Program-made: the position numbers and the translations under genes
Notes under the pieces: generated by a model
Told to the model about the DNA's origin: nothing
The model's database searches: none
The model's input: only the letters and a program-made list of their open reading frames with translations
Sequence record: MN850639.1
Length of the DNA stretch: 64,000 nucleotides
Reading direction: 5' to 3' (one strand)
DNA from: Escherichia phage radambza
In this document: one piece after another, positions 4,277 through 63,656 of the stretch
How positions within the stretch are numbered: the stretch's first letter is position 1
Layout: every line of letters starts with the position of its first letter

Positions 4277-6976
4277 ATGGAAAACGTAGATTTTAAAAAC
4301 TTACATTTGGTTGGTGATACAGAAACTGATGGTTTACTCCTTGAGTTCACTAAAGTGCACGTAATGGCTTTCGCAGACTATAAATCTGACGAGGAAGAGC
4401 CACCTGTATGGGTCTTTACAGATGAACCTATCCTCGGTCACAAGTACACCAAGTACATCAAGGGTGGCTTACGTGAAGGTATTGAGTTTGCGTTAAAGGC
4501 AAAACGTCTTTGCATCCACAACGGTCTCGGTTATGACTGGTGGGTTTTCAATCACATTGCACCTGATTTATGGAACTTTGATAATCCAAAGTGTAAACCG
4601 TGGAGTAATTTCTTTCAGGATTCTCTTATCCAGTCTCGTGTTCAGTGGATGGATAGACCAACTCCAAAGGGTTATAAAGGTGCTCATGGTTTGGCTGCAT
4701 GGGGTGCTCGTGTTGGTGTTCGTAAACCAGAGATTGAGCATTGGGGTGTGTGGAATGCAGAAATCTTCACTCGTGTTGTAGAAGATATCCGTATTAACGC
4801 CAAAACTAAACGGGCACTTGATAACGAGTATCTCAAGCTTAAGAAGTGTGGCATAGACACTTATGAAACCTACATGCGAGCTAAAGAAACATCTTTCTGG
4901 ATGAGTCAACAAGCTATTAATGGTTGGAAAGCTGATAAAGAGCTTATGGAGTTCCATGTAAAGGAACTTGACAAGTTGACTAATGAGCTTGCTTCAGAGG
5001 TTGAACCACATCTTCCTCCAACTATTAAGACTAAAGGTAAAGTTACTGGAGAAGAGTTTGCAAAAGCTTGGAATGAGTATGTTGAAGCGTTCGGTCATGC
5101 AGATGGACTGAAGAGAATTACCAAGTACCCTAAGACGAAGTACCGTCAGCAGGTACGTAACGGTGAGATGCAGACATATGAAATCAAGCCATTTGGTAAG
5201 CCAACTACAAAGATTTTTAACATTGAAAAAAGAAATTGCTATACACCAACCAACACTGTAACTGGTGAAGAGTACAAGGAAGGTTTTGTAGCAATGAAGG
5301 ATGCTCGTGCAATTTGCAATGCGTTGAACGCAAAGATTGGTAAGAAATGCAAAGACTGGAAGCCAGTAAAAACAGTCAAAACTGTGAAGTACTATAACAG
5401 TCACGTTGTTAACCACTTTGAACTTGAGTCAAGTCGCTACACAGGTTTGATTGATGCACCATATACACCAATTGAGTTCGAAGTTTCTCGTATGACTCAG
5501 GTAGCAGTTGTTAAAGACTACTTGAAATCAGTTGGTTGGATTCCAGATGACTGGAACTACAAGAAAGACTCTGATGGTCGCCCTGTCAAAGTTTGTCGTT
5601 TCAAAGACAATAAAAAGATGATTACAAAGCATCCTAAGTGGCAGGAAATGGTTGAGCGGTGTGGTTTGAGTTATGTTGAACATGAAGGTGTACAGTACAT
5701 CGAGCATAACTGGTCTGTGAAGAAATACACAGATTTGCTTGAACCTTGCTTAATCCGTACTTCACCAAAACTTACTGAATCATCTTATGATACGATTGAA
5801 GGTGAGCTTGGACAGAAGATTGCTAAGTACTATACTTTGATGCACCGACGCAGAACTATTGAGAACTCAAAGGATGATGAAAAAGGTTGGTTGAACCAGA
5901 TTCGTCCTGATGGTCGCCTTAGTGCTGGTGCAATGGTATTTGGTACTTCAACTGGACGTATGACACAATATGGTATTGTAAACGTACCGTCTGGTGCTGC
6001 TGTCTATGGAGCACCTATGAGGGAGGTGTGGACTTGTGAAGATGGTACAGATATCATCTCCGTAGACCAAAACTCAGCCCAGCTAGTTCTTCTTTGTAAC
6101 TTTATGGGTGATGAAGACTTCACTAAAGCGGTAACTGAGGGTAAAGAGTCAGTAGAGTTCACTAAGCAAGATGATGGTAGATACTACTGTAAGCATCTTG
6201 ACAAGTATCTTAACCCAGAAACTGACAAGTATCTGCGTTATGATGCTGAAAATGACCTCTATGAAGTCTACACAGGGACTGATGCACATACACTGAACAG
6301 TATTTACTTTGGTCTGAACAAAGAAGAAGATATTGTTCGTTGTAGGGAGACACAGGATGAGGAACTTCTTCACGAAATTACAAAAGGCCGTAAGAAGGCT
6401 AAGAATGGCATCTACGCCCTGTTATTTGGAGCCGGAGACGAGAAGTTTGCAAAAACTATCAAGGCATCATCTACGGAAGAGGGTGCGTTAACTAAACAAA
6501 CTTACTTTGTGCGCCTCCCTAAGATTAAGAAGCTGCTGGACAGGTTAGAGGAAGACTTCAAAGCAACTAAGAAAGCACTTGAAGAGGTTTTCGGAAAAAC
6601 TTCTGCAATTGCCAAAGGTGGTTATATCAAAGTTGCTGGAGCGTGGTTATGGTGTAAATCTCCACATAAGTTATTGAATTACACACTTATGGGTAGTGAG
6701 GCTCAGGTGCAGAATGAGGGTATTAACTTGGCTAACAGAGAGTTAACAGAGCGTAAGCTTACAGTCCTAAATGGTAGGAAGCCCGCTATTGGTGCTAGGT
6801 GGGTCTGTAGTTACCACGATGAGGTCTCTTTAGAGGTTCCAACAAAAGATGTACCTGATGTTAAGGAGATTATTGATAGAATGTATGGTCAAGCATCAAA
6901 AAATCTTGGATTAAAGAGTAAGACGCTTGTTACAGGCACTGGTAAGGTAGGTAAGACATGGTACGCCGTACACTAA
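4277..6976 (+). CDS. DNA polymerase, family A (Pol I / T7-like) with 3'-5' exonuclease
   Basis: 900 aa ORF; start moved to ATG 4277 behind RBS AGGGAG; exo motif DTETDG; C-terminal motif C SYHDEVSLEV (HDE). Confidence 0.85.
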   Translation: MENVDFKNLHLVGDTETDGLLLEFTKVHVMAFADYKSDEEEPPVWVFTDEPILGHKYTKYIKGGLREGIEFALKAKRLCIHNGLGYDWWVFNHIAPDLWNFDNPKCKPWSNFFQDSLIQSRVQWMDRPTPKGYKGAHGLAAWGARVGVRKPEIEHWGVWNAEIFTRVVEDIRINAKTKRALDNEYLKLKKCGIDTYETYMRAKETSFWMSQQAINGWKADKELMEFHVKELDKLTNELASEVEPHLPPTIKTKGKVTGEEFAKAWNEYVEAFGHADGLKRITKYPKTKYRQQVRNGEMQTYEIKPFGKPTTKIFNIEKRNCYTPTNTVTGEEYKEGFVAMKDARAICNALNAKIGKKCKDWKPVKTVKTVKYYNSHVVNHFELESSRYTGLIDAPYTPIEFEVSRMTQVAVVKDYLKSVGWIPDDWNYKKDSDGRPVKVCRFKDNKKMITKHPKWQEMVERCGLSYVEHEGVQYIEHNWSVKKYTDLLEPCLIRTSPKLTESSYDTIEGELGQKIAKYYTLMHRRRTIENSKDDEKGWLNQIRPDGRLSAGAMVFGTSTGRMTQYGIVNVPSGAAVYGAPMREVWTCEDGTDIISVDQNSAQLVLLCNFMGDEDFTKAVTEGKESVEFTKQDDGRYYCKHLDKYLNPETDKYLRYDAENDLYEVYTGTDAHTLNSIYFGLNKEEDIVRCRETQDEELLHEITKGRKKAKNGIYALLFGAGDEKFAKTIKASSTEEGALTKQTYFVRLPKIKKLLDRLEEDFKATKKALEEVFGKTSAIAKGGYIKVAGAWLWCKSPHKLLNYTLMGSEAQVQNEGINLANRELTERKLTVLNGRKPAIGARWVCSYHDEVSLEVPTKDVPDVKEIIDRMYGQASKNLGLKSKTLVTGTGKVGKTWYAVH

Positions 6977-8365: not shown

Positions 8366-8572
8366 ATGGAAGTCCTAGTAAACTATATCTATTGTTATGA
8401 TGTTGTTCATTCCACTACAACTGTAGCTCAACGTAATCCAATAGTTCCACGAGAAGGTGAGTTGGTTCGCATTGATGGTTGGACTTACACTGTGGAAAGC
8501 ATCATTCATAAGTTTGATGTTGCTGGCGATGTTCAAGTTATCGACGTAGAGATTGGTGGTAAGAGGAAATGA
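8366..8572 (+). CDS. hypothetical protein (68 aa)
   Basis: ATG 8366 behind GTGAGG; the longer track ORF overlaps the lipoprotein gene. Confidence 0.45.
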   Translation: MEVLVNYIYCYDVVHSTTTVAQRNPIVPREGELVRIDGWTYTVESIIHKFDVAGDVQVIDVEIGGKRK

Positions 8573-8787
8573 CTGTAGAAGATAAATTTAAGAACGCAGT
8601 TCTTACAGAAGATGGTGAGCTTGAAACATTCATTCTTCGTGTTGATGGTAAGCTATTCCGGTGTCGTTGTGGGTCAAACTGTTTTCATAAACCAGATAAA
8701 AATGACTTAGAGCTTTACGCATGTAATGCTTGCAATACTTGGTATCACTCAGAGGTTAAAAATGACAACACTGTACAAACAAAATAA
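8569..8787 (+). CDS. zinc-ribbon protein
   Basis: CRC...C and CNAC cysteine pairs; 72 aa. Confidence 0.5.
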   Translation: MTVEDKFKNAVLTEDGELETFILRVDGKLFRCRCGSNCFHKPDKNDLELYACNACNTWYHSEVKNDNTVQTK

Positions 8788-9862
8788 AGATGGCTCTTTC
8801 AACGTCTGGTCATGCGTTGCTGTAGGTGACAAAGTTGTTACAACCTACGGTAAAGAAAATGGCAAGATGATGTTTGAAGAATATACAGCAGAACCTAAAA
8901 ACATCGGTAAAAAGAATGAGCGTAACGCTGAACAGCAAGCTCTCTTTGAAGTTGCTGCTAAGTATAAAAAGCAAGTTGACCGCAAAGGTTATGCTTACAC
9001 AAAAGAGTCTGCACAGAACACTGAAAAGGTAGGTGTACAGCTTGCTCATGATGCTGCAAAAGTTAGTCATGCAAAGTATATGAAGTTCCCTGCTGATGCT
9101 CAACCAAAACTTGATGGTGTACGTTGTAGAATTTCAAGAGATGCTGATTCAGTTAGTTTCACGGCTTATTCTCGTGAGAATACTGTTTACAACGTCCCAG
9201 CAGAACTAATCCCAGATTTGCTTTTGTTGCTTAAATTACATCCACAAGTCGAAGACTTTGATGGTGAGATTTATGCTCATGGTTGGGACTTAGAAGATAT
9301 TGTGTCTATGATTAAGAATGCTGACAACCCAGAACGTCACCTTCTTAAATTCTACTGGTATGATATCTGTGACAATTCAAAAACTTGGCCTGAGCGTCGT
9401 GAAATTATTGATAGCTCACCCATTATTGAGCTTGGTGATATCTGTAGAGTTGTTCCTGTACAGACTATCCGTGTTAACTCTTGGGAAGAGTTTGATGAAG
9501 CTCATGATAAGTGGGTTGAAGCTAAGTTTGAAGGTGCAATGTACCGTTCAATCTCTGAAAACTCCTTCTATGAGTGTTGTCACCGTTCATACTTCTTGAT
9601 TAAGCACAAGAAGATGCACACTGAAGAGTTTAAAGTGACTGGTGTAAAGACTGATAAGCGGGGTCATGGCAAGTTCGTTGTAGAGACTCTTCCTAACGTC
9701 TTTGTAGATGTCTCATGGAAGACTACTCATGAGAAGAAACAGTATCTTGCTGAGCATCCTGAAGAGTTTATCGGGAAACCTTTGACGGTTCAGTTCCAGA
9801 AGATGACTCGTAAGGGTTCTTTACAGTTCCCTGTCGGGCTAGTTATTAGGGATTATGAATAG
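8762..9862 (+). CDS. ATP-dependent DNA ligase
   Basis: Nucleotidyltransferase motif I KLDGVR (KxDG); about 366 aa; start set at ATG 8762 behind GAGG. Confidence 0.8.
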   Translation: MTTLYKQNKDGSFNVWSCVAVGDKVVTTYGKENGKMMFEEYTAEPKNIGKKNERNAEQQALFEVAAKYKKQVDRKGYAYTKESAQNTEKVGVQLAHDAAKVSHAKYMKFPADAQPKLDGVRCRISRDADSVSFTAYSRENTVYNVPAELIPDLLLLLKLHPQVEDFDGEIYAHGWDLEDIVSMIKNADNPERHLLKFYWYDICDNSKTWPERREIIDSSPIIELGDICRVVPVQTIRVNSWEEFDEAHDKWVEAKFEGAMYRSISENSFYECCHRSYFLIKHKKMHTEEFKVTGVKTDKRGHGKFVVETLPNVFVDVSWKTTHEKKQYLAEHPEEFIGKPLTVQFQKMTRKGSLQFPVGLVIRDYE

Positions 9863-10046
9863 TGAAAAGAGAGATTATCAAGTTTACAAATCCGGGTGGT
9901 TGTTGTCCGGTTCATGATAAGTACCCTAGCAACACTTACAAGAATAGGCGCTCTATCAAGAAGAGGTCACTCTTTATTAAGAAAGAGCACAGGCATGTGA
10001 GGCGGGTCGTTAAGCAAAATCTTCATAAAACTTTATTAGAAAGTTG

Positions 10047-10074
10047 TTGACATAGAAAATTTGGTGAGTATACT
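10047..10074 (+). promoter_or_regulatory. sigma70-like promoter
   Basis: TTGACA-16 bp-TATACT; about 250 nt upstream of the secreted-protein gene. Confidence 0.5.
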
Positions 10075-10327
10075 GAGCAGCATAAACCAACGGGTACTCA
10101 CCAGCATCACTTAAGAGTCTTCTAAGAGGGTTTTTAAGTGATGTCTGGTCAAGTGTTGTCCAGTATGGCAAAGCATGGTTCTGTTCGGTAGGGTTTGGTA
10201 TGGAAGGATGGCAGTAGCCTTATAAAAAATCTGCCAAATAAGCTATAAAATCTGTTGACAAGTCAGGTGTTATAGCTTATTTTTATACTCAATGTAATAC
10301 AAAATTTAATATAACTTTGAGGTAATT

Positions 10328-10711
10328 ATGAAAAAGGTTTTATTAGCTGCTGCAATGGTTATGGCAATGAATTTACCAGTCAATGCAACAGAACTCCCAA
10401 ATGTGGACTTATCAGGTGTTCCAGAAGACACTTGCCAGATTGTTAAAGGTGTTGCTCTAGCTAATGGCGAGCTACTTAAACCAATCTCTGAAGAGTCTTT
10501 AACAGAGATGACTGATAAGGTGACTGACTATCAGTATCGTGTCCTTGCAGAGTATTTCCTGCAATCTGCAAATATTAAAGAGAAGCACCATGATGATATT
10601 GATGTACAGGCTATGCTCAATCATCGCATCCAGTTTAAAGAGGATTTGATGCAAAAAGCTATGTATGGTGTTGAGTATTTCTTAGAAAACAGAAGCTGCA
10701 CAGGTATTTGA
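10328..10711 (+). CDS. secreted/periplasmic hypothetical protein
   Basis: Signal peptide MKKVLLAAAMVMAMNLPVNA; RBS GAGG upstream. Confidence 0.55.
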   Translation: MKKVLLAAAMVMAMNLPVNATELPNVDLSGVPEDTCQIVKGVALANGELLKPISEESLTEMTDKVTDYQYRVLAEYFLQSANIKEKHHDDIDVQAMLNHRIQFKEDLMQKAMYGVEYFLENRSCTGI

Positions 10712-10712
10712 T

Positions 10713-10925
10713 ATGGCTCTTAAAAAGTTACATCCCAGAAGCGGTTATGGTAAGATAATTGATGATACAGATGGCTTTACAGTCTTTACAGTTATCTGTC
10801 AAGATGATTCACAGATTGAAAAGGCTCTTGATGATTATCTTAACGATGAACGTGAAAAGGTTAGGGCTACGAACATAGATTCATTGATTGACACTTCACG
10901 CAAACGGAAGAAGAAAGATGAATGA
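10713..10925 (+). CDS. hypothetical protein (70 aa)
   Basis: ORF track; tightly coupled to the upstream gene. Confidence 0.45.
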   Translation: MALKKLHPRSGYGKIIDDTDGFTVFTVICQDDSQIEKALDDYLNDEREKVRATNIDSLIDTSRKRKKKDE

Positions 10926-11217
10926 GGTTTTTGACCCTTATGCCCCACAAGATGATTGGGAGGCTGATAGAGAGGCTGAAATGGAGAGTTATATTTGTCC
11001 AATGGATGTAGACGAAATGAGAGACTTCGTTGCACATCGTTTTAAGAGAGAGATTAAATCAAGAGGTCTTTCTCAAGAGCAAGTTGCTAAAATTTGTGGT
11101 ATCTCTCAGGCTCGTGTATCCAACATAATCCATCTCACTGGTAACGTCTCCCTTGAGTATATGTTGGAAGTATGTGAAAAATTTGGTGTTAATTTCAATT
11201 TAAGGTTGGCAGACTAA
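10918..11217 (+). CDS. putative helix-turn-helix DNA-binding protein
   Basis: LSQEQVAKICGISQARVSNII resembles an XRE-type HTH; start moved to ATG 10918. Confidence 0.5.
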   Translation: MNEVFDPYAPQDDWEADREAEMESYICPMDVDEMRDFVAHRFKREIKSRGLSQEQVAKICGISQARVSNIIHLTGNVSLEYMLEVCEKFGVNFNLRLAD

Positions 11218-11218
11218 T

Positions 11219-11578
11219 ATGAAACGTGAAAACATTATCCACTCTGAAAACTTCGCATTAGGCTTTTATGGTGTACCTACTCACCTTGAAAAGTATTATG
11301 GTGTAAAGATTCTTTCCAATCTCATTATGGCTTACAAAGATGGTAAGATTAAGCATACTGAGAAGAAACGTGTCATGGGTTATATGGCTGTAGGTTCAGC
11401 AATCTCGAACATTAAGTTGGAAACAACTAGCAGTCAGATTGTAAAAGACCACTTCATCAAAGAGCTTTACCAAAATCTTGATGGTGTAGATGTTCAGGCT
11501 GTTTGGCTGGATGTTGATGGTCATAACTACACAAGTTTTGTTTTCAAAAACGATGACATTAAGTGCTTGTTCCCATAA
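11219..11578 (+). CDS. hypothetical protein (119 aa)
   Basis: ORF track, operon context. Confidence 0.5.
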   Translation: MKRENIIHSENFALGFYGVPTHLEKYYGVKILSNLIMAYKDGKIKHTEKKRVMGYMAVGSAISNIKLETTSSQIVKDHFIKELYQNLDGVDVQAVWLDVDGHNYTSFVFKNDDIKCLFP

Positions 11579-57363: not shown

Positions 57364-57563
57364 TTGTTATTTTTGACAACTTTTAAAACTGCAAGATAAC
57401 CTAAGCAATAAGAATCACCGAAGAGAGTCCTACCCATGAAAGAGTCCTCTTTGATATCCTTTGCAGTGACAGTTTTCTCTACGCCGTGGGAAAGGACTAC
57501 ATCACCAACTTTAATATCTTTGATGTGAGTTGTTTCAATGTGTAAGCCGTTAATAATAGCCAT
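57360..57563 (-). CDS. hypothetical protein (67 aa)
   Basis: Preceded by cassette A copy 4. Confidence 0.45.
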   Translation of the reverse strand: MAIINGLHIETTHIKDIKVGDVVLSHGVEKTVTAKDIKEDSFMGRTLFGDSYCLGYLAVLKVVKNNK

Positions 57564-57654
57564 TTTAGAATCTCCAGTTTAGGATTTTATTTAGTGGGAA
57601 GGTCATCCCCTTCCCGTTGATGTGTAATTTAATCTATCTAAAAACCAGTGTCAA
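57564..57654 (-). promoter_or_regulatory. cassette A copy 4
   Basis: TTGACA-17-TAAATT, hairpin GGGAAGGGGAUGACCUUCCC, RBS GGAGA. Confidence 0.6.
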
Positions 57655-57663
57655 CAAAATTTT

Positions 57664-58068
57664 TTAGAGTTCTGCATAAATTGCATCACAGACATCGCGA
57701 AAATCATGATTTGTCAAATTACGTTGTAACCAAGTGGCAAAGAAATCAGCGATTGCAAAATTAGCGTCATACTCGACAGATAACCATACTTTCACGGCAA
57801 ATCGAAACATTTTTAAATCAAGCTCTTTATTCATTACCTTCGATTTGCCTAACATGTCAGCCATTTCATATTGCGCACCGTCTAGCGTGATACCTGCTGC
57901 AACGTCAGCCAATGAACTTTTTACGTTTTCAACGTCTAAGATAACGCTTTGAATCTTTCCGATAATGTTGTGCAATGTTTCATCAGGCGCTGATGACGTC
58001 ATGATATTGATTCGATTAACGGTCAAGCGTGCTTTTAAGATTGATAATTCACGGTTATTAATAGCCAT
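57664..58068 (-). CDS. hypothetical protein (134 aa)
   Basis: Preceded by cassette B copy 2. Confidence 0.5.
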   Translation of the reverse strand: MAINNRELSILKARLTVNRINIMTSSAPDETLHNIIGKIQSVILDVENVKSSLADVAAGITLDGAQYEMADMLGKSKVMNKELDLKMFRFAVKVWLSVEYDANFAIADFFATWLQRNLTNHDFRDVCDAIYAEL

Positions 58069-58158
58069 TTTAGAATCTCCAATTTAGGATTGAGTGGTAA
58101 AGTTCTTTATCTGGGGCTTACTTTATCGAACTATAAGCCCCCTGTAAAGTACTTTACA
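58069..58158 (-). promoter_or_regulatory. cassette B copy 2
   Basis: Perfect 16 bp palindrome TGTAAAGTACTTTACA (58143-58158), hairpin GGGGCUUAUAGUUCGAUAAAGUAAGCCCC, RBS UGGAGA. Confidence 0.55.
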
Positions 58159-58426
58159 CTAAATGCAGTTTTTTACCTTTTACTATAATGTAACTCGATG
58201 CACTATTGCTTTGCACATCCTGATAAATTCTGCGCAAACGGCCTTCATAGTGTACTTTCCAACTGGTTGGAATCTTTTTACCGTATCCGGTAGCAGTTTT
58301 TTGGAGTCCTGCGACTTGCCAATCTAAGATATGTTGTTCAGCTTGTAAGTCTTCAAAGTGCATGACACCATCTACATAGTGACGTAGTGTGACATTTAAA
58401 GTGCGACCGTTGTTAGTAGTATACAT
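58154..58426 (-). CDS. hypothetical protein (90 aa)
   Basis: Preceded by cassette A copy 5. Confidence 0.5.
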   Translation of the reverse strand: MYTTNNGRTLNVTLRHYVDGVMHFEDLQAEQHILDWQVAGLQKTATGYGKKIPTSWKVHYEGRLRRIYQDVQSNSASSYIIVKGKKLHLV

Positions 58427-58518
58427 TTTAGAATCTCCAGTTTAGGACTTTATTTAGTGGGGAAGGTCATCCCCTTCCCGTTGATGTGTAATTTAATCTA
58501 TCTAAAAATCAGTGTCAA
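58427..58518 (-). promoter_or_regulatory. cassette A copy 5
   Basis: TTGACA (58513-58518 rc)-17-TAAATT (58490-58495 rc), hairpin GGGAAGGGGAUGACCUUCCCC, RBS GGAGA. Confidence 0.6.
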
Positions 58519-58847
58519 GAATTTTGTTTTCGTTTGCTCAACTCTTGAACAATTACAGCATGATAGTCTTTCAAGTCACTGATGTTTAAAGCATTTATCA
58601 GAGAATTATAATCATCAACTAACTGAAAATCATCTTTGAAGATGTCACTTATCTGATAGGTTTTGGCTTTATATCTGAAGCTCATCTCTAGCCGCTTTAT
58701 TTGCTCATCACTGAGACGTCCTAGAAAGCTTTCTACAAGGTTATTGCTAACCTGCTGTGTGATTGCCTTATTTGCTAGATTATAGGCTTTATATGCCTTA
58801 TATAGCGCGAAAATGGCAATGATTGCAGTGATACCAGTCATTAACAT
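58515..58847 (-). CDS. hypothetical membrane protein (110 aa)
   Basis: N-terminal TM GITAIIAIFALY; overlaps the upstream gene end, so co-transcribed without its own cassette. Confidence 0.5.
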   Translation of the reverse strand: MLMTGITAIIAIFALYKAYKAYNLANKAITQQVSNNLVESFLGRLSDEQIKRLEMSFRYKAKTYQISDIFKDDFQLVDDYNSLINALNISDLKDYHAVIVQELSKRKQNS

Positions 58848-59137
58848 GGTGTTTCCTCTTTACGTGATACTTTGCCACTTACAGTTATCTCATAAGATTC
58901 TAATAAATCGCTTTTAGACTTTACAGGGCTTTTAAAAGTATCATCGTAAATATTGACTTGCAATACAGGTTTTTTATACTCCCTGCAACTACTCCATAAG
59001 CAAATCACTACACGACGGCCTTTGATTTTTCCGTGTAACCATTCCATAACATCATGACTATTCCTTGATGTTTCAATGAAATCAATTTTATTAAGTAACT
59101 TGCTTAGATTTTCACGGACTTTATTTGATAGTTTCAT
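58841..59137 (-). CDS. hypothetical protein (98 aa)
   Basis: Preceded by cassette B copy 3. Confidence 0.5.
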   Translation of the reverse strand: MKLSNKVRENLSKLLNKIDFIETSRNSHDVMEWLHGKIKGRRVVICLWSSCREYKKPVLQVNIYDDTFKSPVKSKSDLLESYEITVSGKVSRKEETPC

Positions 59138-59226
59138 TTTTGAATCTCCAGTTTAGGATTTAGTGGTAAAGCTCTTTATCTGGGGCTTACTTTATCGAAC
59201 TATAAGCCCCTTGTAAAGTACTTTAT
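59138..59226 (-). promoter_or_regulatory. cassette B copy 3
   Basis: Near-palindrome TGTAAAGTACTTTAT, same GGGGCUUAUAGUUCGAUAAAGUAAGCCCC hairpin, RBS GGAGA. Confidence 0.5.
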
Positions 59227-59606
59227 CAGTTAATTTTGAAGATTGTTACATAACCATCGCTCCCGATGATTTGTGATACTCCAGCTTTTTCTACTTGATA
59301 GCCCATATTTTCAAGATGATAAATAGCGTCATCGTAACCATATGCGCCACCCTGATAACGTCTCTTATCGCATCTTATCAGGTTTTTTCCACGCCCAGCA
59401 AGTGCATGTAGAATTGTTTTTTCACTTGAAAGAGTGCCATCTAACATGGTTGCCGTGTAATGGTTGATTTTATTCCCGTTGATATCATACTTAAAATTGA
59501 ACGAGTGAACAACAATCACATTACCTTTGAAATTTTCATCAAGTGACTTCTCCAGTACGCTACGAAAGTTGTCTTTGTTGATGAATTTAGGCGCACGATA
59601 TTTCAT
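59226..59606 (-). CDS. hypothetical protein (126 aa)
   Basis: First gene of the array; preceded by cassette A copy 6. Confidence 0.5.
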   Translation of the reverse strand: MKYRAPKFINKDNFRSVLEKSLDENFKGNVIVVHSFNFKYDINGNKINHYTATMLDGTLSSEKTILHALAGRGKNLIRCDKRRYQGGAYGYDDAIYHLENMGYQVEKAGVSQIIGSDGYVTIFKIN

Positions 59607-59698
59607 TTTTGAATCTCCAGTTTAGGACTTTATTTAGTGGGGAAGGTCATTCCCTCCCCGTTGATGCAAATACTAGATAACCCCGTTCAAAGAGTCAA
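59607..59698 (-). promoter_or_regulatory. cassette A copy 6
   Basis: TTGACT-17-TAGTAT, hairpin GGGGAGGGAAUGACCUUCCCC, RBS GGAGA. Confidence 0.55.
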
Positions 59699-59819
59699 GA
59701 AAAATTTTAAAAATATCTTTGGCAAAACTGTAATGAAACGGGCGCACACGACTACCACAAAACAGAACACAAATCAAGAATTATTTTTCAATCCGCTACA
59801 AATTTTTCTCTTGACTTTT

Positions 59820-59850
59820 GGGGAGAGGGGGAGTAAGAGGGGGAGAGGGG
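59820..59850 (+). repeat. G-run tract (possible G-quadruplex former)
   Basis: GGGGAGAGGGGGAGTAAGAGGGGGAGAGGGG: four G runs of 4-5 in 31 nt within an AT-rich genome. Confidence 0.5.
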
Positions 59851-59869
59851 TTGGTCTGGCTCTCTATAA

Positions 59870-60050
59870 AAACCTACCTGCACGATTCTAAAATGATTTT
59901 TCTTGCCCGACCTGAGCGGGGTCTGCACGTTTTGAAAATGAAAAAGCCCTTTGGAGATTACCTGCACAGTTTGAAAATGAATTTTCTCTTTGGAGTTCAA
60001 AATTTTCTCTACAGATTTCTATACAGAACTCTACCTGCACAATCCTGAAA
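59870..60050 (+). repeat. four dispersed repeats YCTGCAC-N-TT-N-GAAAATGAA
   Basis: CCTGCACGATTCTAAAATGA, TCTGCACGTTTTGAAAATGAAAAAGCCCT, CCTGCACAGTTTGAAAATGAA, CCTGCACAATCCTGAAATGAAAAAGCCCT. Confidence 0.5.
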
Positions 60051-60126
60051 TGAAAAAGCCCTCCTTACCTGAAAAATTTACCAGATAAGAAAGGCTTAGT
60101 CTATTATGAATATTCTACAGAGTTTC

Positions 60127-60912
60127 TTAGTTCTTTGCGTCTAAGAAGGTAACTTCTGGTGAAGAGAAGATTGCCTCGATATCCTCATCAGTTCTTGCAT
60201 AGATATAAGCTTCTGCATCACTACCAAATGTTACAGCAATTCTGTGATTGCTCTTCGACAGGTGGGTAACTAGAGCGTTGCTTAGAGACATCTTTTCAAC
60301 CGGAGGGTTACTTTGATGTATCTTACCTTTTCTTCGTCTGAAGAGGGTAACTGCATTATCCGTGAACACTGCTACACCTGCAAAGTATCCTGGCTCACAG
60401 TAGTTTTTCCAACCTGAGAGTAACTTGTGGTACATATCACCTTCATAGACATACAGATAGACATCTACACTCTTCATCACCTGATTGATGATAACTGTGA
60501 CAGCTTGAGGGTCAAGTCCACCGATACCTGCACCAATCATAGGTAGACCGACTTTCTTCAACTGATTCACTTCACAGTATCTGTTAAGTTGCTTCAAAGA
60601 TGACTCTAAAGCACTGTATCGGGCATCTTTACCAGTCTTAAGCTGAGTGTAAAGGTTAGCTATACGACCTTGTTTTAAGCGTGCTACAGAGAAATTACCT
60701 AGTAAATTCTCACAAGGTTTGTGACCTATACCACCTGCATAGAGATAAACTTCTGTATCGGTCTCATATGCTTTTGGGTAAAGTTTAGAAATCTTGTCAG
60801 CGATACCTGCACCCATTAGGTTCATGCAGTTACAACCATGACCAATGATGTCAAACTTACCTTTATCAAATGCAGCAAAGATATCACCATTGATGATTTT
60901 TACAATACCCAT
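60127..60912 (-). CDS. macro-domain-like protein (putative ADP-ribose binding/hydrolase) with C-terminal extension
   Basis: N-terminal GDI...DIIGHGCNCMNLMGAGIADKI and later GLPMIGAGIGGLD resemble the two macro-domain signature blocks; 261 aa. Confidence 0.5.
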   Translation of the reverse strand: MGIVKIINGDIFAAFDKGKFDIIGHGCNCMNLMGAGIADKISKLYPKAYETDTEVYLYAGGIGHKPCENLLGNFSVARLKQGRIANLYTQLKTGKDARYSALESSLKQLNRYCEVNQLKKVGLPMIGAGIGGLDPQAVTVIINQVMKSVDVYLYVYEGDMYHKLLSGWKNYCEPGYFAGVAVFTDNAVTLFRRRKGKIHQSNPPVEKMSLSNALVTHLSKSNHRIAVTFGSDAEAYIYARTDEDIEAIFSSPEVTFLDAKN

Positions 60913-61113
60913 TTAACATCTCTCCCAAGATTCTTTATCCTCTGAAGGCTTTACACGTTGCCCTTCGTGGTCTACCCAGATGCACCCACAACCTTCACAG
61001 ATTACTGGCATTGCATAACCAGCTTTAAAGTCATCTTCAGTGATAAGACCTTTTAAGTCACCTGTATCACGTCCAAACATTTCTATAGAACAGTCTTTGC
61101 AGAAGTCAGCCAT
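60913..61113 (-). CDS. zinc-binding small protein (66 aa)
   Basis: CKDC ... CEGCGC cysteine pairs. Confidence 0.45.
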   Translation of the reverse strand: MADFCKDCSIEMFGRDTGDLKGLITEDDFKAGYAMPVICEGCGCIWVDHEGQRVKPSEDKESWERC

Positions 61114-61656: not shown

Positions 61657-61926
61657 TTACTTCCTCGTTTTAAGAACTGCTAAGATTTCTTTAGAATCTG
61701 GTAAGAACCATGTGTAGTGATTCTCTTTGATTTCTGGATGAGTGTCAACCTTTATTTTGCACTCTTTACCAACATGCTTAAGCTGTGCTGTGACACCTTG
61801 CATAAAGATATGACACATCACATTATCCATAATGGTTGGCAAGAAGTCAATTCGCATATAAGTTTCTTTTGGTCGTGGTAACAGTAAGTAACCTTCTACA
61901 TAGAAAGTGTCTTGATTCTCTGTCAT
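61657..61926 (-). CDS. hypothetical protein (89 aa)
   Basis: ORF track. Confidence 0.45.
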   Translation of the reverse strand: MTENQDTFYVEGYLLLPRPKETYMRIDFLPTIMDNVMCHIFMQGVTAQLKHVGKECKIKVDTHPEIKENHYTWFLPDSKEILAVLKTRK

Positions 61927-62192
61927 TGCTGCTTATTCCCTAATAAAATCATGTCAATAAGGTTATTAGCTTTAATTGTACACTGGTAAAAGCCGTCACG
62001 GTAGAACTCAAGTGCTGCTGCTACATCACTGCCTGTGTTGCCTTTGATGATATACCGTGATTCTTCTTGAGTGTACTTATCACTCTCACTTACTTGGGAG
62101 TTTTTGAATGTACTGCTCACTTTGTTCGTTGAACACCCTGACATAATTATCAGTAACACAAACATTATAAAACTCTGGCTTAGTTTTTTCAT
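61923..62192 (-). CDS. o-spanin (Rz1-like outer-membrane lipoprotein)
   Basis: Signal peptide with lipobox IIMSGC; gene overlaps the 3' end of the i-spanin gene in another frame. Confidence 0.55.
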   Translation of the reverse strand: MKKLSQSFIMFVLLIIMSGCSTNKVSSTFKNSQVSESDKYTQEESRYIIKGNTGSDVAAALEFYRDGFYQCTIKANNLIDMILLGNKQQ

Positions 62193-62433
62193 ATGTTAGT
62201 ACCTCTTTTGTGTGCTTATTCTTAGCAAGCACATCTTTCAAATCATTTTTGTAATTGGTGCTCAGTGTAACTAATCCTTCCTGATAAGCATCTTTAGCAA
62301 CACTTATTAGCTTCTCATTGCTTAACTCAGCTTCAGCAACTTGGTAGTCTCTGTAAGAGTATCCTCCCCAGACACCCGCCCCAGCTAAGAAAACAATTAT
62401 GAAAGTGGCTTGACAGAACTCTTTAAATGTCAT
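62086..62433 (-). CDS. i-spanin (Rz-like)
   Basis: N-terminal TM (FIIVFLAGAGVWGG) followed by charged helical periplasmic domain; 115 aa. Confidence 0.55.
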   Translation of the reverse strand: MTFKEFCQATFIIVFLAGAGVWGGYSYRDYQVAEAELSNEKLISVAKDAYQEGLVTLSTNYKNDLKDVLAKNKHTKEVLTYEKTKPEFYNVCVTDNYVRVFNEQSEQYIQKLPSK

Positions 62434-62453: not shown

Positions 62454-62474
62454 AAAAGGCTCCCGAAGGAGCCT
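62454..62474 (-). terminator. rho-independent terminator
   Basis: Minus strand GGCTCC-TTCG-GGAGCC followed by TTTTT; same hairpin as the terminator at 48071. Confidence 0.5.
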
Positions 62475-62960: not shown

Positions 62961-63656
62961 TCAATGTTTAACTAACATGGTTTTAATGTGTGGAAGGATT
63001 CTGTTCACCTTCTGCACATTCTTCTCTGTGTCTTCTATAAAACATACTATATTAAAGTAAGGCAGGATGCAAGACTGAATCATCCTCACTTTCAAACTTT
63101 CTGCACTTATAGAGTTAGTTCCAAAACCACGCATAAAAAGCATGTAGTCATGCTCTATGTTATGCCTTAAAAACATCTCAGTAGGTATTCTCTGAGATTC
63201 ACCTCTCGCTGTCAAGAGTCCAATGGCAGCATGATTAGCAATTGCATCAATAATACTAAAAACATACGTTGGTTTTGCTCTTACAGAATCAAGAAGATTA
63301 GTGTACTGTGAGAATGACCCATCAGTCAATTCCGTTGAACAATCTTCGTGATTAAAATTTGTAAGAACACCATCAATATCTGCTAAGATGAGATTCCCTT
63401 TTTCTACAAGGTCTTTATTGACTATGACTAAGCTATCACGACTTACTCCTATAGATTGTCCAGTCTCTTTGTCCACAACGTTCACAATTGGTTCTGATGT
63501 GTGGAACTCTTCAAGTGAACATACAACTTCTCTTGCAGTGTCTTCAAAATCCCTACACTGTTCTGGAGACCATACACAGGAATCAAGACCTAACTCATGA
63601 GGATGTAAGTCATAAGCATGACACAGTACTTCATCAGACTTTCTTAATTTTTTCAT
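62961..63656 (-). CDS. HAD-superfamily phosphatase/nucleotidase-like protein
   Basis: Motif ILADIDGVLT (DxDG(T/V)) typical of HAD phosphatases. Confidence 0.5.
   Translation of the reverse strand: MKKLRKSDEVLCHAYDLHPHELGLDSCVWSPEQCRDFEDTAREVVCSLEEFHTSEPIVNVVDKETGQSIGVSRDSLVIVNKDLVEKGNLILADIDGVLTNFNHEDCSTELTDGSFSQYTNLLDSVRAKPTYVFSIIDAIANHAAIGLLTARGESQRIPTEMFLRHNIEHDYMLFMRGFGTNSISAESLKVRMIQSCILPYFNIVCFIEDTEKNVQKVNRILPHIKTMLVKH

Follow-up and report, generated by a model that had tools for sequence, protein, structure and literature searches.

Within a 64,000-nucleotide stretch of DNA from Escherichia phage radambza (sequence record MN850639.1; the whole stretch is called the window here), a single ATG-initiated open reading frame (ORF) at 60127..60912 on the minus strand encodes a protein of 261 residues. 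The protein, referred to below as the window protein, carries an N-terminal macro domain followed by a C-terminal domain, and is homologous to AdfM (anti-DarT factor Macrodomain) of phage T4. On balance, and arguing from sequence, we favour the view that it is an AdfM-type orphan: an antitoxin-like ADP-ribosyl glycohydrolase that would act on DNA modified by the toxin DarT2 of host DarTG2 systems. The gene and the parts of its product are listed here, with the kind of evidence in brackets:

60127..60912, minus strand: complete coding sequence, 261 amino acids (aa) plus stop codon; macro domain and C-terminal domain (ORF listing of the window, PHROG 335, orthologues)
60442..60912, minus strand: macro domain, residues 1-157 (Pfam, DarG models, AlphaFold2 with Foldseek, substitution rates)
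60130..60441, minus strand: C-terminal domain, residues 158-261, one helix and then a beta-rich fold of six strands (predicted)
60799..60840, minus strand: loop 1 of the ADP-ribose site, H25-G-C-N28-C-M-N-L-M-G-A-G-I-A38 (invariance, alignment)
60643..60657, minus strand: motif N86-L-Y-T-Q90 (invariance, HMMER and MAFFT alignments)
60511..60543, minus strand: phosphate-binding loop 2, P124-M-I-G-A-G-I-G-G-L-D134 (invariance, alignment)

An earlier note on this DNA had assigned the N-terminal part to the macro domains from motif resemblance only, and the assignment was borne out by profile searches and by structure prediction. Pfam PF01661 (Macro) matched residues 25-141 over profile positions 2-117 of 118 (32.4 bits, E=1e-7; the gathering cutoff is 22 bits), and PHROG 335 matched residues 1-260 (E=7.5e-112). 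The best NCBIfam match was the DarG macrodomain (47 bits, residues 7-159), followed by a marginal second match (E=0.18), and DarG was the sole match in the PADLOC search (47.1 bits, residues 24-158). When a family profile made from 19 full-length homologues was searched against the PDB, human TARG1/OARD1 (4J5R and related structures) was found with E=4e-11, and the DarG macrodomains of M. tuberculosis and T. aquaticus with E=7e-9 and 3e-7 respectively. The AlphaFold2 model of the protein (predicted local distance difference test, pLDDT, 85.3; predicted template modelling score, pTM, 0.85) has the three-layer alpha/beta/alpha macro fold. Foldseek aligned this model with more than 50 solved macrodomains at a probability of 1.00 and a TM-score normalised by target length (TMt) of 0.67-0.83; the best solved structures were TARG1 and T. 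aquaticus DarG (0.80-0.83). Neither of the outcomes that the earlier note had named as telling against a macro domain, no significant profile match and an unrelated predicted fold, was therefore seen. The two signature blocks to which it had drawn attention are real as well: GLPMIGAGIGGLD corresponds to residues 122-134 (window 60511-60546), and the Gly-rich block NLMGAGIA to residues 31-38. Since the macro domain ends near residue 157, the C-terminal extension that it had described is present, but measures about 104 residues rather than about 90.

The ratio of non-synonymous to synonymous substitution rates (dN/dS), determined for three Felixounavirus orthologues, was about 0.02 in the macro domain. 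In the C-terminal domain it was 0.13-0.23, so that this part, though still subject to purifying selection, changes 5-10 times faster; these values indicate that both parts are real coding sequence. We regard the macro fold and ADP-ribose binding as near certain, and judge that the domain is very probably competent for catalysis.

The motifs of the ADP-ribose site are strongly conserved. Among the 19 family members, H25, G26, N28, C29, N31, M33-G36 and N86-L-Y-T-Q90 are invariant, as are P124, G127-A-G-I130 and G132-L-D134. A MAFFT alignment was made with T4 Tk.4 (the product of adfM), an Erwinia phage homologue, PhiKZ gp104, TARG1 and both DarG macrodomains, whose sequences were recovered through a PhiKZ gp104 query. 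The loop-1 Asn and both Gly-rich ADP-ribose/phosphate loops are present and align with the motifs of DarG, TARG1 and PhiKZ: N28 falls in the column of PhiKZ AdfM N23 and of the DarG Asn, and loop 2 aligns with PPLGxGNGGL of DarG and PRIGCGLDRL of TARG1. Both the HMMER profile and the MAFFT alignment place Q90 in the column of the catalytic Lys, which is K84 in TARG1, K80 in DarG and the Lys of FPTK in PhiKZ gp104. The Asp of the TARG1 catalytic dyad, D125, aligns with G131 and so has no counterpart in the window protein; DarG likewise is without a TARG1-type Asp (PMC9411070). With Gln at the Lys column and Gly at the D125 position, the window protein is therefore not a Lys-type enzyme of the TARG1/DarG kind.

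The Gln at this position is not evidence of inactivity, because SCO6735 of Streptomyces coelicolor (PDB 5E3B, ALC1-like) is active with a Gln there. Gln85 of SCO6735 is equivalent to K84 and K80, and the Q85A substitution abolishes activity; N27, the equivalent of N28 in the window protein, is similarly important, an N27S variant being almost inactive (PMC9411070). The enzyme releases ADP-ribose linked to thymidine in DNA and gives protection from DarT (PMC9411070; DNA activity also PMC12879935). Besides having Gln where DarG and TARG1 have the catalytic Lys, it shares with the window protein the His-x-x-Asn spacing in loop 1 (H24/N27 versus H25/N28), and it is encoded as a stand-alone macrodomain, without a cognate toxin beside it. 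It differs in being a bacterial housekeeping or DNA-damage-inducible protein, and in having no C-terminal domain.

The closest characterised phage homologue is T4 Tk.4. BLASTP aligned the two proteins over the whole macro domain with 34% identity (E=3e-24), the T4 record carries the same PHROG assignment (phrog=335), and the motifs HGCNC, MG(A/S)G, NLYTQ and IGAGIG, with Gln at the Lys position, are common to both. In a T4 transposon screen on a DarTG2 host, only tk.4 was significantly depleted; a clean tk.4 knockout was DarTG2-sensitive, and the authors named the gene adfM (bioRxiv 10.1101/2025.11.20.689424, a 2025 preprint). This result fills the gap left by the observation that T4 without adfA and adfN still resists DarTG2 (PMC11825919). 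Both genes are orphans of virulent coliphages with no toxin adjoining: no darT lies next to the macro gene in the window, where the neighbours are small phage ORFs, spanin genes and a PNKP-like gene, none with a match to an ADP-ribosyltransferase. On the DarG models the window protein scores higher (47 bits) than T4 AdfM (30-36 bits). The two differ in architecture, T4 AdfM being a bare macro domain of 155 aa to which the window protein adds 104 C-terminal residues, and in neighbourhood (vs/tk in T4; spanins and small ORFs here), and a phenotype has been demonstrated for T4 AdfM only.

A second orphan phage macrodomain that counters DarT2 is gp104 of the chimallivirus PhiKZ, a DarG2-like AdfM. 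In vitro it strips from DNA the ADP-ribose that DarT2 has attached, it rescues cells poisoned by DarT2, and mutation of the conserved catalytic-site Asn lowers its activity, an N23A construct being described in the methods (PMC13309987). Apart from this conserved Asn (N23 versus N28) the resemblance to the window protein is limited. Identity is 23%, PhiKZ AdfM is truly DarG-like, with FPTK and its Lys and 138 bits on the DarG model, and it is imported into the phage nucleus. The proposal in the earlier note that a phage macro domain could be an antidote to ADP-ribosylating immunity thus has precedent in the T4 and PhiKZ homologues, whereas the NAD-derived signalling that it also mentioned gained no support.

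The macrodomains outside phages that match best were compared in the same way. DarG of DarTG2 (T. aquaticus, 5M31/5M3E; M. tuberculosis, 5M3I) resembles the window protein in its macro fold (TMt 0.71-0.80), in the motifs of both loops and in a two-domain layout with the macro domain at the N-terminus, but its catalytic Lys80 is replaced by Gln in the window protein. The NCBIfam match to the DarG equivalog model NF048014 reached 47 bits against a cutoff of 250 and covered profile positions 4-149 of 338, and the PADLOC DarG match covered positions 18-145 of 329. The C-terminal DarT-binding domain of DarG, at profile positions of about 150-338, has no counterpart in these matches, and the C-terminal 104 residues searched alone against DarG models gave no match at E<=10. 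Human TARG1, which hydrolyses thymidine-ADP-ribose DNA (PMC12879935), is the best PDB match by sequence and by structure (TMt 0.82), but it is a single-domain protein and has K84 and D125 where the window protein has Q90 and G131.

Together, the precedents of T4 and PhiKZ AdfM and of SCO6735 point to hydrolysis of thymidine-ADP-ribose by Gln/Asn, water-mediated chemistry as the most likely mechanism. In this proposal, host DarT2, once DarTG2 is triggered, would put ADP-ribose on thymidine of single-stranded phage DNA. During infection the N-terminal macro domain would bind the thymidine-attached ADP-ribose and hydrolyse the base-ribose bond, which would restore replicable DNA. Catalysis would be of the SCO6735 type, with Q90, held by N28, positioning the distal ribose for attack by water, and would use neither a Lys nor a Lys/Asp pair. 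The 104-residue C-terminal domain would be an accessory module, possibly serving to bind a partner or the substrate.

Several points weigh against this reading. The additional C-terminal domain means that the window protein is not simply the orthologue of T4 AdfM, and the substrate specificity of a macrodomain is not predictable at 34% identity to T4 AdfM, an enzyme whose own activity has been deduced from genetics only (10.1101/2025.11.20.689424). The direct match to SCO6735 (5e3b_A) is weak (single sequence, E=0.39; profile, E=0.12; T4 Tk.4 matches 5e3b with E=3e-4), and the equivalence of the Gln residues is therefore transitive, through TARG1 and DarG. The AlphaFold2 loops around residues 31-34 and approximately 121-130 have low model confidence. 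Our literature search found no report on the sensitivity of Felixounavirus to DarTG2. Finally, SCO6735 and TARG1 act on proteins as well as on DNA (PMC9411070, PMC12879935).

This last point bears directly on the possibility that the protein is an active hydrolase whose relevant substrate is ADP-ribosylated protein or RNA, produced by other host toxins or defences, and not DarT2-modified DNA. TARG1 and SCO6735 are the closest characterised enzymes, the protein-acting macrodomains of coronaviruses and alphaviruses are significant structural matches in Foldseek, and a defence system with an mRNA-targeting ADP-ribosyltransferase, CmdTAC, is known (PMC11618068). In the CmdTAC paper, however, macrodomains come up just twice, when coronavirus work is cited, and no reversal by a macrodomain is reported. 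Given also that the phenotype of T4 Tk.4 is DarTG2-specific and that the best match in the defence libraries is DarG, we consider a protein or RNA substrate unlikely. An enzyme that processes small ADP-ribose derivatives (ADP-ribose-1''-phosphate, O-acetyl-ADP-ribose or immune signals), as a metabolic or signal-quenching partner of phage NAD+ salvage, would account for the 'phosphatase' label on PHROG 335 and on many GenBank records, and the older label 'O-acetyl-ADP-ribose deacetylase' points the same way. It would also suit the likeness to yeast Poa1p, an ADP-ribose-1''-phosphate phosphatase, and the position of Felixounavirus NAD+ salvage genes about 8 kb, and of a PNKP-like phosphatase gene 2 kb, upstream of the macro gene. 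The Poa1p sequence match is nevertheless confined to residues 1-60, the N-terminal third (profile, E=6e-5), its fold agrees as that of all macrodomains does (TMt 0.74), and the label is an inherited annotation that T4 Tk.4 bears too, yet Tk.4 proved to act against DarTG2. No connection with defences of the Thoeris or Sir2 type came to light, and a small-molecule substrate appears decidedly improbable.

Replacement of the catalytic Lys also raises the question of whether the protein cleaves anything, or is a non-catalytic ADP-ribose reader or sponge that binds modified targets or DarT-like proteins, with the C-terminal domain as its effector part. Both residues of the TARG1 dyad, K84 and D125, are missing, the equivalent of DarG K80 is Gln, and catalytic mutants of SCO6735, DarG and TARG1 still inhibit DarT by interaction (PMC9411070). 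SCO6735, however, has full activity with a Gln in place of the Lys; the Asn, the His and both Gly loops are invariant, and the dN/dS of the macro domain is typical of an enzyme, all of which makes a purely binding role very unlikely. Finally, the protein might reverse or tune ADP-ribosylation by the phage's own ADP-ribosyltransferases, as T4 possesses such enzymes (Alt, ModA and ModB) together with a macrodomain of the PHROG 335 family. The window and the complete genome of Felixounavirus ESCO49 were searched by tblastn with Alt, ModA and ModB, and nothing was found (best E=0.5); the annotation there includes no ADP-ribosyltransferase either. A role confined to internal regulation is therefore left without a visible partner, and we hold it to be extremely improbable.

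The C-terminal domain was analysed separately from the macro domain. It is predicted with a pLDDT of 77 when modelled alone and of 81-92 per ten-residue block in the full model. No relative was found in Pfam, NCBIfam, PADLOC or the PDB, and none in BFVD except the homologous protein of phage SUSP2. An HMMER profile of the domain searched against 1.8 billion representative proteins gave 11 matches. Those that are not repeat proteins are either macro fusions or short records resembling fragments of such fusions. Two of the short records were considered as stand-alone versions of the domain: P0032 (114 aa) has its start within the final strand of the macro domain, and in P0036 (54 aa) the match is limited to the C-terminal end. 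Both are probably fragments of fusion genes and so provide no evidence that the domain exists independently. The domain was encountered only as part of fusions belonging to this family. The remaining matches, to long PQQ/beta-propeller, retrotransposon and PAS proteins, were rejected as relatives, the alignments being weak, multi-stretch repeat matches that probably reflect resemblance to a beta-hairpin motif and not homology. The pattern behind the likeness to a propeller blade is P-x-x-F/V-x-G-V-hydrophobic...D...V-x-L...G-K-x-x-W-S.

Between distant homologues the C-terminal domain retains 15-20% identity, compared with 40-53% for the macro part. A role in nucleic-acid binding was considered and set aside: the RRRKGK patch is not conserved and the isoelectric point (pI) of the domain ranges from 4.8 to 9.7 across homologues, a spread that makes a conserved electrostatic DNA-binding role unlikely. 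The domain might instead be a second anti-toxin module, a stoichiometric blocker of DarT2 or of another host ADP-ribosyltransferase, a suggestion that we regard as rather doubtful. If it held, the protein could be a convergent, two-pronged mimic of DarG, an eraser combined with a toxin binder, built from an unrelated domain.

Relatives of the macro part were detected by tblastn in 2,791 phage records, and the two-domain protein in 256 phage records at a coverage of at least 80%. The gene is retained throughout Ounavirinae, and selection on it is strongly purifying, both of which count in favour of the AdfM reading. Felixounavirus genomes hold proteins 94-99% identical to the window protein, and close relatives (at least 90% identical) occur in Felixounavirus and allied phages of Escherichia, Salmonella and Shigella. 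Citrobacter phage Michonne has a two-domain protein with 65% identity, and two-domain proteins of about 260 aa are present in Erwinia phages of the M7 type and in phage SUSP2. Even metagenomic relatives at 33-35% identity have the fusion, with the genes in the same order (lysin, PNKP-like gene, small ORFs, macro gene). In GenBank the close relatives are labelled 'macro domain protein', 'phosphatase' or 'O-acetyl-ADP-ribose deacetylase'. With the macro label already in GenBank and counter-defence published for T4 and PhiKZ, the macro-domain assignment itself is not new, and the gene is a credible but unsurprising counter-defence gene; what is new is the C-terminal domain only.

If the favoured reading is correct, AdfM counter-defence would extend from T-even and jumbo phages to Ounavirinae, the Felix-O1-like phages that are widely used in typing, biocontrol and therapy of Salmonella and E. 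coli, and these phages would be predicted to be naturally resistant to hosts carrying DarTG2. The family would also contribute many natural sequences that have Gln in place of the catalytic Lys, in support of the mechanism without Lys that has been put forward for SCO6735. The C-terminal domain is small and tractable, and bears on the question of whether macrodomains of phages, like DarG, acquire modules for toxin binding or for targeting.

The window is Felixounavirus (Ounavirinae) DNA, about 95% identical to that of Escherichia phage wV8; over the 3 kb around the macro gene, identity is 91-95% to wV8 and to about 250 further genomes of the genus. The signals around the gene are as follows:

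60920..60926, minus strand: Shine-Dalgarno-like GGGAGAG, 7 nucleotides (nt) 5' of the macro-gene ATG (direct sequence reading)
60056..60097, minus strand: intrinsic-terminator-like hairpin and T-run, 30 nt past the macro-gene stop (promoter/terminator scan)
62474..62457, minus strand: second terminator-like site, upstream boundary of the unit (promoter/terminator scan)

The unit running from terminator to terminator comprises seven ORFs: those for an i-spanin and an o-spanin, four small ones with no assigned function and the macro gene, which, from the terminator-like sites at both ends, is the last of the seven. The spanin genes form an embedded pair at 61923-62433 on the minus strand (i-spanin, 62086-62433; o-spanin, 61923-62192), the o-spanin having a lipobox-like MSGC. 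That lysis genes should share one unit with a putative counter-defence gene is odd. A NADAR (AdfN) partner was also looked for, and tblastn with T4 30.3 found nothing.

The start codon of the macro gene abuts the TAA of a 66-aa ORF upstream (60913-61113, minus strand), and from this arrangement the two genes are predicted to be translationally coupled. The 66-aa product is Cys-rich (CxxC ... CxxCxC), belongs to PHROG 2210 (function unknown) and is probably a zinc ribbon. It was dismissed as a conserved neighbour, as neither locus L007 nor Erwinia phage M7 has kept it; in locus L006, a distant relative, a different 63-aa CxxC..CxxC protein takes its place (4810-5001). The PNKP-like gene, 2 kb upstream of the macro gene (62961-63656, minus strand), encodes a 231-aa protein that PHROGs labels 'polynucleotide kinase' (phrog_3970), and no Pfam family matched it. 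The syntenic gene in related loci has a weak match to the HAD_PNKP phosphatase alone, so the protein may be a phosphatase-only PNKP remnant. Synteny of the PNKP-like gene with the macro gene extends to the distant relatives L006 and L007. The NAD+ salvage genes lie outside the window; in phage ESCO49 (locus L005) a nicotinate/nicotinamide phosphoribosyltransferase gene and a PRPP synthetase gene occupy 8548-11256, about 8 kb upstream of the macro gene on the same strand, in a block shared with rIIA and rIIB. These two Felixounavirus genes possibly constitute an NAD+-replenishing counter-defence module.

About 420 nt on the 3' side of the macro gene (59710-60126) contain no convincing ORF, although a 159-nt plus-strand coding sequence is annotated in this stretch in one relative. 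The stretch holds three degenerate 34-nt direct repeats (59923-59956, 59962-59995 and 60035-60068), the third of which overlaps the hairpin of the terminator. In this region close relatives are distinguished by insertions and deletions, as shown by megablast matches that are fragmented and span more bases than the query. Farther on, near-identical cassettes of two types, about 90-105 nt long, lie directly 5' of successive small minus-strand genes:

57561-57665, 58424-58529 and 59604-59709, and also 58066-58156 and 59135-59225, upstream of minus-strand genes: cassette copies

Type A combines a start codon and GGAG ribosome-binding site (RBS), a GGGAAGGTCATCCCCTTCCC hairpin and a promoter-like site, TTGACA-17-TAAATT, its copies being 93-95% identical; type B is a 91-nt repeat with 95% identity. 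Both types resemble terminator/promoter/RBS modules used repeatedly to serve an array of putative early 'moron-like' genes.

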